Source of the DNA: Candidatus Rhabdochlamydia sp.
GTDB taxonomy: Bacteria; Chlamydiota; Chlamydiia; Chlamydiales; Rhabdochlamydiaceae
Direction: 5' to 3'
NCBI GenBank assembly: GCA_051648645.1
Contig: JBOFFP010000004.1
Coordinates: 64,001 to 128,000, forward strand
DNA: 64,000 bases
Numbering within the stretch: the stretch's first letter is position 1; each line of letters begins with the position of its first letter. The position numbers were made by a program, and so were the translations under genes. The notes under the pieces were generated by a model. It had not been told where the DNA came from. It searched no databases and saw only the letters and a program-made list of their open reading frames with translations. Of the stretch, positions 58,769 to 60,833 are shown piece by piece.

Positions 58769-59296
58769 TTAAACTATTTTACTGCTTTTTTTTGCAGCCC
58801 CCGGCGCTAATACAACTGATAAACTACGCCCGAGCATTTTCGCTGGCGCTTCAGGAGTGGCTACATCAACAAGACCTTCACACATTCCTAAAACTGCTTT
58901 TTGAGCATATTCAGGTCGTGCCATTTCTCTGCCACGCAATGTACAAGTAATACGAACTTTATTCCCTTTAGCAATAAAATCACGCGCATGTTTTAATTTT
59001 ACCATGATATCGTGATCGTCTGTATTAGGCTTAATTTTTATTTCCTTTACCTTAACCTGATGCTGCGACTTTTTTTGTTCTTTTTCTTTCTTTGTTAGTT
59101 GATAACGATATTTACCATAATCGATAATTTTACAAACAGGAGGAGCCGCATTTGGAGCGATTTCTACCAAATCCAGTCCCATTTGCTCTGCTTTTGCCAA
59201 AGCTTCTGCTAATGACAAAATCCCTAATTGATTTCCTTCTTTATCAATTACACGTACTTTTAAAGCACGAATTTCTCTATTGATTCTCAGATTCAG
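58769..59296 (-). CDS. infC: Translation initiation factor IF-3 (probable CTG start)
   Basis: RINREIR, LDLVEIAPNA.PPVCKIIDYGKY, GNKVR...RGRE. GGGGG SD 8 nt upstream of CTG 59296. Confidence 0.93.
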   Translation of the reverse strand: MNLRINREIRALKVRVIDKEGNQLGILSLAEALAKAEQMGLDLVEIAPNAAPPVCKIIDYGKYRYQLTKKEKEQKKSQHQVKVKEIKIKPNTDDHDIMVKLKHARDFIAKGNKVRITCTLRGREMARPEYAQKAVLGMCEGLVDVATPEAPAKMLGRSLSVVLAPGAAKKSSKIV

Positions 59297-60833
59297 AGTT
59301 CTTACCCCCAGTTGCCATTTGTATCCGTGTGCACAAAGCATCTACTGTTATGCTCTGTTCTTGATTTAAGCCTGACTCATGCAAAGTAAGCATATTTGCT
59401 AACCGCTCTTTCTCGCCAATAAGCACAATATAAGAAATATGTGCTTTAATTGCCTTATAGAAACGCTGTGCTAAAGAAACGCTATATTGATAATCCATTA
59501 ATACTTTAACGCCTTTTTGGCTTAATTGAGCACAAACCGTCTCAGCATATAACCTGCTTTCGGAATTAACTACAATAATACGTATATTTTCGCTAGTTAA
59601 CCAAAAGGGCAGCTTACCCCCTGTTTGCTCAATAAGCACTCCCATCATTCTTTCTAAATTGCCAAACATAGAGCGTAAAAGAATTGCTTCTTGATTGCTC
59701 TTTAAAATGCTTAAAAAAGGCCCACTCCACCATCTTTTTAAGCTGTCTGCAATGTGTATTTCTACGCGTTCAATAAAATCAGAGTGACCTTTCTTTTCAA
59801 TACGATAATCTAACTGCAATTCCTTTAAGGCCTGTTGCATGATAGACAACTGCATATCATTTTTTTTTCTAACTTTACTATGAGAACTGCGTAAAATAAT
59901 TTCGAACTCAAAACCCAAGATTTTAGGGGTTTTTAAAATGAATTGCAAGGAAGAAATACACTCTTTTAATAAGTTCTCTCTTGAACAAAATAAGTGCGTA
60001 TAATCAGCCAAATAGCAAGAGGATTGAAAAAGCCCTTGTTGCATATCATTACTGTCTGGATTCATAACCCATGCAATCTCTGCCAGTTTATGCATTTTTT
60101 TTTGAGTATTTTCAAATACTTGCTTATGATTCTTCGTTAAAGGATTAAAACCATTTGTAACTAGCGGATGAGGAGAAGTGATAAATTCAATATTTTCTTT
60201 TGCAGATTCTTTTTTCCAATAGTTAATCAAAAGTTCTTTTATTGCTTCTGCTTTGGGCAACCAAATCCAACCTCCTTGATTTTCTAAAGGCATAAAAAGC
60301 TGCATGTCACAAATTAACTGGAGGTGATTGCGCTCTTGCCAGAATAAACGCTTCTGCTTGCAAGCACTATTTGCTATGCCAACAATTCGAACAAGACCTG
60401 GAATAAAAGAACAAACCATAAAAGCTTCTTTTAACTTCGCTGTAAATGAAGCTTTAACTTTATGAAGATTGAGATGAGGAACCCATGTAGCAAATTCCCC
60501 TATTTGTCCCATGGTGATTAAAGCGTTTTGGTTTTTTTTTAGCTTTTTAGCAATCAAATATTGTTTTTGATGCTCCATCCATAAAGCAGCATTATTAGGT
60601 GTCATTTCAAGAGATCTTAAAACCCTATCTTCTTTATAAATCATCCTCATTCTATCTTCTATAACGCCTAAAAGATTAGGCTCAAAATCAAAGGGAAAAA
60701 GGATATCATAAAAAAAGCAAGCCTCTGTTCCATGACCTTCTACTAAAAGCGCTTTTGGAAACAGTTCTACAACTGCTGCTGCCAAAAGTAAAGAATTTAC
60801 TTGATTTTCAATTATATAATTATTTTCAGACAT
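59277..60833 (-). CDS. Degenerate threonyl-tRNA synthetase-like protein (probable pseudoenzyme)
   Basis: Recognisable ThrRS scaffold (LAAAVVELFP, FFYD, LIEQTGGKLPFWL, IVLIGEKE), but catalytic, zinc and editing motifs are replaced. ATG 60833. Confidence 0.8.
   Translation of the reverse strand: MSENNYIIENQVNSLLLAAAVVELFPKALLVEGHGTEACFFYDILFPFDFEPNLLGVIEDRMRMIYKEDRVLRSLEMTPNNAALWMEHQKQYLIAKKLKKNQNALITMGQIGEFATWVPHLNLHKVKASFTAKLKEAFMVCSFIPGLVRIVGIANSACKQKRLFWQERNHLQLICDMQLFMPLENQGGWIWLPKAEAIKELLINYWKKESAKENIEFITSPHPLVTNGFNPLTKNHKQVFENTQKKMHKLAEIAWVMNPDSNDMQQGLFQSSCYLADYTHLFCSRENLLKECISSLQFILKTPKILGFEFEIILRSSHSKVRKKNDMQLSIMQQALKELQLDYRIEKKGHSDFIERVEIHIADSLKRWWSGPFLSILKSNQEAILLRSMFGNLERMMGVLIEQTGGKLPFWLTSENIRIIVVNSESRLYAETVCAQLSQKGVKVLMDYQYSVSLAQRFYKAIKAHISYIVLIGEKERLANMLTLHESGLNQEQSITVDALCTRIQMATGGKNSESENQ

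Follow-up and report, generated by a model that had tools for sequence, protein, structure and literature searches.

What might a chlamydial genome do with an intact reading frame that resembles a threonyl-tRNA synthetase (ThrRS), lacks the residues of its active sites, and lies directly upstream of infC, the gene for translation initiation factor IF3? The frame is found on the minus strand of a 64,000-nucleotide stretch of Candidatus Rhabdochlamydia sp. (contig JBOFFP010000004.1, positions 64,001 to 128,000), here called the window, and we use thrX as a working name for the ThrRS-like gene at this locus. An earlier interpretation made from the letters alone, the sequence-only reading, had described an uninterrupted 518-codon open reading frame in the order thrS(like)-infC-rpmI-rplT-pheS; the frame is indeed open from 59277 to 60833, and the order was recovered on the minus strand. 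Judging by its residues, the thrX product can neither charge nor edit tRNA. We lean towards the view that thrX encodes a non-catalytic, ThrRS-derived binding protein and that its coding sequence also carries expression signals for infC. The features on which this view is built are as follows.

59277–60833, minus strand: thrX, a ThrRS-derived frame without the TGS domain or catalytic residues (518 codons; stop codon TAG at 59277–59279)
60339–60833, minus strand: N2 (editing-domain-like) part, residues 1–165; HxxxH and CxxxH lost, fold residues kept
59604–60338, minus strand: class II core-like part, residues 166–410; motif-1 region and motif-3 Arg kept, zinc/threonine loop deleted, motif-2 Arg lost
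59277–59603, minus strand: anticodon-binding domain, residues 411–518 (PF03129)
59920–59957, minus strand: promoter-like element, with the 20-mer ATTTCTTCCTTGCAATTCAT (59938–59957), a -35 box TTGCAA (59943–59948), a 17-nucleotide spacer and a -10 box TAAAAT (59920–59925)

The frame is open for 535 amino acids from a TTG codon (59277–60884, minus strand) and for 518 from the ATG at 60833. The ATG is the sensible start of thrX because the TTG extension overlaps the gene for tRNA-Val at 60842–60917.

Loss of catalytic residues and retention of the ThrRS fold

The genome carrying the window has a canonical thrS on another contig (C12:169936–171603), as the sequence-only reading had expected when it placed a functional thrS elsewhere. 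This gene scores 679.4 bits with the NCBIfam model thrS (TIGR00418) and has a 645-residue frame with every motif intact. The same model gives thrX 146.2 bits, below the cut-off of 383.65 bits for a functional ThrRS, and Pfam recognised in thrX the anticodon-binding domain only (PF03129, residues 418–505, E = 1.6e-9). Compared by BLASTP with the canonical ThrRS of its own genome, the thrX product is 23% identical over 525 columns, and the alignment begins at the N2 domain; the TGS domain is missing from thrX and likewise from every family copy examined. A canonical thrS was also present in four of five other thrX-bearing genomes checked, the fifth having a fragment at a contig end.

The alignment with the canonical enzyme of the same genome locates the losses. 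At the editing site, HSSAH is replaced by QVNSL and FFDLCRGPH by FATWVPHLN, so that CxxxH reads TWVPH. The segment with the zinc-binding Cys (KPMNCP) is deleted, the first His of the zinc triad is kept, and the second is replaced by Leu. Motif 2 changes from HVHRHEASG...QDDAH to WVMNPDSND...ADYTH, with RxE becoming NPD. All the substitutions that had been named at HxxxH, DLCRGPH, KPMNCP and motif 2 were thus present in this alignment. The earlier claim that HRA of motif 3 had become LRS was right about the exchange and wrong about the label: IHRA, which reads LLRS in thrX, contains the zinc-ligand His that precedes motif 3, and the Arg of motif 3 itself (GNLER) is retained.

The same pattern extends over the family. 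We counted residues in 61 infC-linked thrX rows and in eight active ThrRS, in which every scored residue is present in all eight; the catalytic, zinc and editing residues are those we take to be such from the structural literature on ThrRS, and their positions were located by alignment. Among the 61 rows, the editing His are kept in three and two, the zinc Cys in one, the first zinc His in 29, and the second zinc His and the threonine-binding Asp in none. The motif-2 Arg and Glu are kept in 5/61 and 11/61, and the active-site Tyr, Lys and Gln in 5/61, 5/61 and 2/61, respectively. No row has a complete zinc triad, and the sole row with the RxE of motif 2 lacks all three zinc ligands. The Arg of motif 3 persists in 56/61. 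The corresponding Glu-Arg pair is found at thrX residues 394–395 (about 59649–59654), encoded by mixed codons across the 56 copies, and it may have a structural role or serve residual nucleotide binding.

The least diverged copies of thrX exceed the NCBIfam cut-off (449.7, 398.7 and 388.9 bits), still without the catalytic set, and these three coexist with a normal thrS that scores about 670 bits. A database search started from one of them returned first a block of clusters with none of the six catalytic motifs, followed by active ThrRS at 38–40% identity, many of them lacking TGS. Many apparently active bacterial ThrRS of 559–596 amino acids have no TGS domain. As they count among the active enzymes most closely related to thrX, the TGS domain may have been missing from the thrX ancestor already.

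The fold seems to have outlasted the chemistry. An AlphaFold2 model of the thrX product, computed with 25 relatives as input, reached a predicted local distance difference test score (pLDDT) of 82.8 and a predicted template-modelling score (pTM) of 0.76. As the sequence-only reading had proposed, the model was compared with Escherichia coli ThrRS, and it matched the full-length enzyme (1qf6_A, E = 2.1e-36, TMq 0.68) as well as Staphylococcus aureus ThrRS (1nyq_A, TMq 0.71). The two matches span 579–587 columns and comprise the ThrRS fold together with the anticodon-binding domain. Bacterial ThrRS (TIGR00418; 1QF6, 1NYQ) resemble thrX in the order of the N2, core and anticodon-binding domains, in the predicted fold, and in their place upstream of infC, where thrS is found in many bacteria. 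They differ in that thrX lacks TGS, the zinc site, the motif-2 Arg, and the threonine-binding and editing residues, and is an additional copy in a genome that also has a normal thrS.

A promoter-like element and the predicted infC start within thrX

Within the genus, the identity at synonymous sites of thrX peaks twice, at codons ~275–335 and 430–518. The first peak covers the hallmark of the family, ISSLQFI..K.PKI, which at first sight might be taken for a protein motif. At the base level, the pattern is ATTTCTTCC-TTGCAA-TTCAT, followed by TAnnnT exactly 17 nucleotides after TTGCAA. Among 47 non-redundant copies, the codons are nearly fixed: I293 is ATT in 42/42, S295 is TCC in 38/39, L296 is TTG in 46/47 and F298 is TTC in 41/41, whereas the top codon in other conserved Leu columns reaches merely 24–46% and other Phe columns favour TTT. 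TTGC.. occurs in 44 of the 47 copies, and TAnnnT at the 17-nucleotide spacing in 46. The commonest -10 boxes are TAAAAT (22 copies), TAAGAT (5), TAGAAT (4), TAATAT (4) and TACAAT (4), and the amino acids encoded over the box vary freely (PKI, IKI, IRI, ITI, VKV, LNM).

The element lies within thrX codons 293–306 and would direct transcription towards infC from a start near 59913. It was also picked up by a blind scan for consensus promoters. It has -35 and -10 boxes at the 16–18 nucleotides expected of a sigma-70 promoter, conserved beyond the coding constraint. In the window, where none is expected, the pattern has a single occurrence, which is also the only one in the genome; the 20-mer is likewise unique there. 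With up to two mismatches, the 20-mer was found in 180 of 401 sampled chlamydial genomes, nearly always once, often exactly and in several families, compared with seven hits for the reversed 20-mer as a control. Because RNAalifold predicted no conserved pairs around the element among 38 family members, local RNA structure was rejected as the cause of the conservation. Rfam returned for 58400–61100, besides tRNA, only matches at chance level, with no L20 leader and no other cis-regulatory family. A promoter on the antisense strand at the palindromic TTGCAA was rejected by eye, as the bases of the would-be -10 box are not conserved.

By its pattern of bases and codons, the most conserved stretch of thrX is a promoter-like piece of DNA rather than a motif of the protein, and it is probably an internal promoter for infC. 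The case might serve as a warning that a promoter lying within a reading frame can be mistaken for a functional motif of the protein. The element also offers a directly testable, phylum-wide candidate for a chlamydial promoter, in organisms for which few promoters have been mapped.

The second synonymous peak contains the predicted signals for infC translation. The Shine-Dalgarno sequence GGGGGT (GGAGGT in a relative) is located in the tail codons of thrX, and the most likely infC start is a CTG codon at 59296 or 59290, overlapping the thrX stop. The starts inferred elsewhere are TTG in most other families and GTG in the coded family f20. The ATG at 59341, which opens the longest infC frame, was rejected as a start since it is deleted in one genome of the genus and absent in other families. 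Because infC signals occupy the tail codons, the conserved C-terminal tail of thrX, GS..SE..N, is probably a by-product of infC bases.

The arrangement is reminiscent of E. coli, in which infC promoters lie inside thrS and the atypical start codon of infC serves the autoregulation of IF3. In both cases, an upstream synthetase gene houses the promoter or promoters of infC, and infC has a non-AUG start. Unlike in E. coli, the host gene is here a dead paralogue, and the putative promoter is conserved at the nucleotide level across the phylum; we do not claim homology between the promoters. The genes and signals around thrX in the window are as follows.

60938–60967, minus strand: promoter-like site TTGATT-18-TATCAT, ~20 nucleotides upstream of tRNA-Val; a consensus match alone
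60842–60917, minus strand: tRNA-Val(GAC), ending 8 nucleotides before the thrX ATG
58769–59296, minus strand: infC (IF3); likely start CTG at 59296 or 59290, overlapping the thrX end
58554–58751, minus strand: rpmI (L35)
58155–58511, minus strand: rplT (L20)
57070–58092, minus strand: pheS
56912–56938, minus strand: terminator-like hairpin 3' of pheS; a consensus match alone

The hairpin after pheS is the next good terminator-like structure on the minus strand downstream of thrX. There is no Shine-Dalgarno sequence in the 8 nucleotides between tRNA-Val and the thrX ATG. As the tRNA ends so close to a start codon without such a sequence, processing of the tRNA may generate the thrX message, which would then have hardly any leader. 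In RNA libraries of two studies, which may hold DNA, contigs cover thrX without indels; one bridges thrX and infC (59026–60794) and another tRNA-Val and thrX (59907–60976). The four RNA-library runs compared are assembled contigs, which carry no information on starts, strands or levels. Contig depth is flat across the predicted internal start, and one contig set (X5) leaves gaps in thrX, neither of which is evidence either way.

Spread, origin and selection of the thrX family

All eight other genomes of the genus carry thrX at 77–84% identity. Relatives at the level of Rhabdochlamydiaceae are 28–42% identical and of similar length, and a second ThrRS-like frame was also found in other families of the phylum. 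A profile of the N2 domain separates thrX from the chlamydial thrS: 50 of 51 copies, from at least 11 families, score at least 131 bits, compared with at most 80 bits for thrS. The single low score (56 bits) came from a 5'-truncated extract, L076. At E <= 1e-30, the profile had exactly one match each in 236 of the 401 genomes, which is a lower bound, since another search revealed a more diverged copy in genus g4 (0/6). By coded family, the matches are distributed as f1 72/89, f22 42/46, f23 29/35, f5 38/69, f19 7/23, f37 1/17 and f20 0/30. Matches in Lachnospiraceae and Patescibacteria were rejected as thrX: they are ThrRS with three to five of the six catalytic motifs and had arisen through the generic word FYYDFxFPF.

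Family f20, with genomes of 1.0–1.4 Mb, is taken to be the Chlamydiaceae. In five of its genomes, no thrX-like frame was found in the 1.5 kb upstream of infC. These five genomes have a tRNA-Val(GAC) that is 95–97% identical, located 1.7–2.6 kb from infC on the opposite strand, which points to an inversion or replacement when thrX was lost.

Where thrX is present, its surroundings are constant. It is directly followed on the same strand by infC-rpmI-rplT in 70/70 loci (61 distinct places in at least 11 coded families), with pheS next in the series wherever the fetched locus reaches that far. Directly upstream, on the same strand, tRNA-Val(GAC) was present in all 42 loci scanned of the 61. In many families, tRNA-Ser(UGA) comes after pheS, and the conserved block is therefore bounded by tRNA genes on both sides.

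In two trees, thrX forms one clade with a support of 100 in the Shimodaira-Hasegawa-like approximate likelihood ratio test (SH-aLRT), with a long stem and long branches; the first of these trees leaves out ten near-duplicate or broken rows. The origin of the clade is less clear. In a tree with five outgroups, thrX groups with the chlamydial thrS (SH-aLRT 92), whereas with 38 generic ThrRS the chlamydial thrS is nested among these (98) and thrX branches from an unresolved base. The approximately unbiased (AU) test did not reject thrX and the chlamydial thrS as one clade (p = 0.42), and the outgroups of the origin trees are biased by having been chosen as the best matches to thrX. In view of these trees, thrX may be a duplicate of the chlamydial thrS or an old resident of the locus beside a thrS that was replaced. 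In either case, thrX is an old, single-copy, vertically inherited family of the Chlamydiota, as old as the split between the chlamydial families.

The thrX protein is under purifying selection, not ordinary decay. By the Nei-Gojobori method, applied to nine genomes of the genus (36 pairs), the ratio of nonsynonymous to synonymous substitutions (dN/dS) of thrX is 0.185 (0.139–0.242), compared with 0.079 for thrS, 0.110 for infC, 0.083 for rplT and 0.136 for the neighbouring rRNA methyltransferase gene. Pairs that include 3'-broken copies gave 0.139–0.242 over the part compared (419–460 codons in the broken copies). Conservation in at least 80% of thrX extends, phylum-wide, to 41 positions, 24 of which are common to active ThrRS, including D363, R367, W369 and motif 3. 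In the motif-1 region, W189, W191, P193, L202 and W206 are nearly invariant. Residues that are invariant in the 47 non-redundant copies are written in mixed codons (six codons each for R395 and R367; GAG 26 and GAA 21 for E402), which argues for selection at the protein level. The best frame at each of the 61 distinct places is uninterrupted by stops, and so are all 150 N2-profile matches listed. The earlier preference for selection over decay therefore held, with conservation reaching far beyond the genus.

This selection is unevenly distributed. Among the six intact copies, dN/dS is 0.157 for the N2-like part, 0.148 for the core and 0.349 for the anticodon-binding domain, and dS is 0.171 in the anticodon-binding domain versus 0.57–0.60 in the rest of thrX. 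Up to codon ~420, the frame is open in each of the nine genomes of the genus. Three of the nine have lesions, all different and all in the anticodon-binding part: an inserted T with a stop, a 68-nucleotide deletion with further indels, and stops with an 8-nucleotide deletion. The domain is absent from 12 of 51 family rows, in which infC follows within ~100 nucleotides, with at least eight losses on the tree. The anticodon-binding domain is dispensable. The sequence-only reading had singled it out as the best preserved part. It is well kept in the window, but this goes with the low dS, and the preservation is partly a matter of nucleotides, since the ribosome-binding site and non-AUG start of infC lie inside the domain. 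That it might form the core of a new role was not supported, given its repeated loss and its break-up within the genus.

Possible roles of thrX

Homology to aminoacyl-tRNA synthetases (aaRS), loss of catalytic residues, an active enzyme elsewhere in the genome and long purifying selection, which are among the properties that mark a pseudo-synthetase, were all found for thrX. On present sequence evidence, we regard it as a non-catalytic aaRS paralogue with an unusual, predicted embedded promoter. At the DNA level, a sigma-70-type promoter in codons 293–306 would drive the essential downstream genes, and the last codons would house the Shine-Dalgarno sequence and non-AUG start of infC, so that the gene would additionally act as the control region of infC-rpmI-rplT-pheS. 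At the protein level, the N2-like and class II core-like parts, ~410 residues, would be kept folded with the anticodon-binding domain as an option, and the product would act by binding, not by catalysis. Most likely, it would be a ThrRS-shaped, class II-type dimer that holds an RNA or a protein of the translation apparatus; as the partner, we would place the tRNA acceptor end first, the canonical ThrRS second, and the ribosome or IF3 third. The sequence-only reading had proposed that the product may bind RNA, associate with the ribosome or regulate the operon.

Several observations sit uneasily with this reading of thrX as a binding protein that carries infC signals. The motif-3 Arg is retained in 56/61 although the rest of the ATP/threonine site is gone. 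In rate of evolution, thrX exceeds thrS several-fold (end branches of 0.3–2.0 versus 0.15–0.33). With the threshold applied, 165/401 genomes, among them all 30 of f20, gave no thrX match, and so some lineages can do without it. The lesions in three of the nine genus genomes and the absence of the anticodon-binding domain in 12/51 rows count on the same side, and the constraint on the gene could be due in part to the signals embedded in it and to the harm done by a misfolding product. Matches to the promoter consensus are no commoner in the region than in shuffled sequences (14 versus 14.7), and it is thus conservation alone on which the promoter reading is founded. Finally, 20 exact bases exceed the needs of a -35 box and may reflect a factor-binding site or another role in DNA or RNA.

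That last point leads to an alternative to which we would grant a modest chance, namely that the 20-mer and TAnnnT serve not as a promoter but as an operator bound by some DNA-binding factor, or as a site for RNA-level control of infC-rpmI-rplT. Conservation across families is beyond that usual for a -35 hexamer, and the same operon is under RNA-level feedback in E. coli and Bacillus subtilis. However, the fixed 17-nucleotide distance to TAnnnT in 46/47 copies, with freely varying inner bases, is the signature of a promoter, and neither RNAalifold nor Rfam found anything at the element that would speak for an RNA site.

A different partner arrangement, which we consider rather unlikely, would make thrX a regulatory subunit that joins the canonical ThrRS through the class II interface into a dead-plus-live heterodimer, thereby tuning or localising Thr-tRNA synthesis. 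The well-kept motif-1 region, which is the class II dimer interface, could be read this way; losing the anticodon-binding domain would be tolerable if the partner supplied one; and thrS accompanies thrX in the genomes checked, in one as a contig-end fragment. But in genomes without a thrX match, as in f20 (0/30), thrS works by itself, the two proteins are only ~23% identical, and a homodimer accounts for the same conservation.

Equally unlikely in our estimate is that the protein has no job at all, and that the frame stays open merely as a carrier of the infC promoter, leader and ribosome-binding site, constrained against toxic misfolding. The strongest conservation in the gene is indeed at the DNA level, the infC start overlaps the thrX stop, the catalytic residues are gone, evolution is fast, and whole families appear to do without thrX. 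A mere carrier would hardly explain, however, why the N2-like domain, which lies upstream of the internal promoter, has a dN/dS of 0.157 and a profile score of at least 131 bits in 50/51 copies from at least 11 families, why phylum-conserved residues occur in mixed codons, why the 150 N2-profile matches listed are free of stops, or why the lesions in the genus are limited to the anticodon-binding part.

With still less confidence, one might propose a regulatory pseudo-synthetase, a dimer alone or with ThrRS, that would sense the status of tRNA or ThrRS and feed back on IF3, L35 and L20, the 20-nucleotide element combining promoter and operator. If this were true, thrX would be a bacterial counterpart of dead synthetase domains of the SLIMP or GCN2 type, with a gene doubling as a control region. 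Ordinary decay, that is, a pseudogene still open here by chance, is largely refuted: frameshifts, stops or deletions in 3/9 genus genomes and the many genomes in which thrX was not found would fit it, but all lesions fall in the last 100 codons with the first ~420 open in 9/9, the best frames of 61 places have no stops at a dN/dS of 0.14–0.24, and the family dates back to the split between chlamydial families.

The preferred reading, a folded and non-catalytic binding protein, has parallels among other synthetase relatives. HisZ is a HisRS-like regulatory subunit of ATP phosphoribosyltransferase that works with HisG and still binds its amino acid. Like thrX, it is a paralogue of a class II aaRS, does not charge tRNA and is kept by selection, and the lack of an anticodon-binding domain is shared by many thrX; unlike HisZ, with its partner HisG and its amino-acid binding, thrX no longer has the site for threonine and zinc. 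SLIMP, a dead SerRS paralogue of insect mitochondria, is a further class II case coexisting with the active enzyme; it is eukaryotic and has been reported to heterodimerise with SerRS2, whereas thrX is bacterial and its pairing with ThrRS hypothetical. mL39 keeps only the TGS and N2-like parts of ThrRS, and PolG2, the accessory subunit of Pol-gamma, derives from another class II enzyme. Both reuse an aaRS fold without catalysis, as we suppose for thrX, and neither is bacterial or linked to an operon. To our knowledge, repurposed dead aaRS paralogues are few, and HisZ, SLIMP, mL39 and PolG2 have each been instructive about the reuse of translation enzymes. The thrX family would add a bacterial, ThrRS-derived member, present in over half of the sampled chlamydial genomes.

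In full-text searches of literature outside subscription journals, we found no description of a dead ThrRS paralogue in chlamydiae; one search brought up an unrelated metagenomics paper. Passages of a 2022 review of aaRS duplicates name HisZ and SLIMP (PMC9437257). As duplicates of ThrRS, the same passages list only cyanobacterial T2 and animal ThrRS-L, both active, and describe no dead ThrRS of the thrX kind (PMC9437257). T2 and ThrRS-L are, like thrX, second ThrRS genes with a diverged role; according to these passages both still aminoacylate, which thrX, judging by its residues, cannot. In public annotations, members of the family appear as "threonine--tRNA ligase", "Threonine--tRNA ligase 2", "anticodon-domain protein" or "hypothetical". 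In annotation and metabolic reconstruction, thrX should not be counted as a second ThrRS.

Among the neighbours of the block, the PF06962 rRNA methyltransferase gene adjoining thrX is broken up into three frames in a single genome of the genus (G002), in which it is probably a pseudogene. Two flanking open reading frames have no Pfam match, one of 337 amino acids (55566–56579, minus strand) and one of 269 amino acids (61884–62693, plus strand), the latter being kept within the genus at 87–96% identity.

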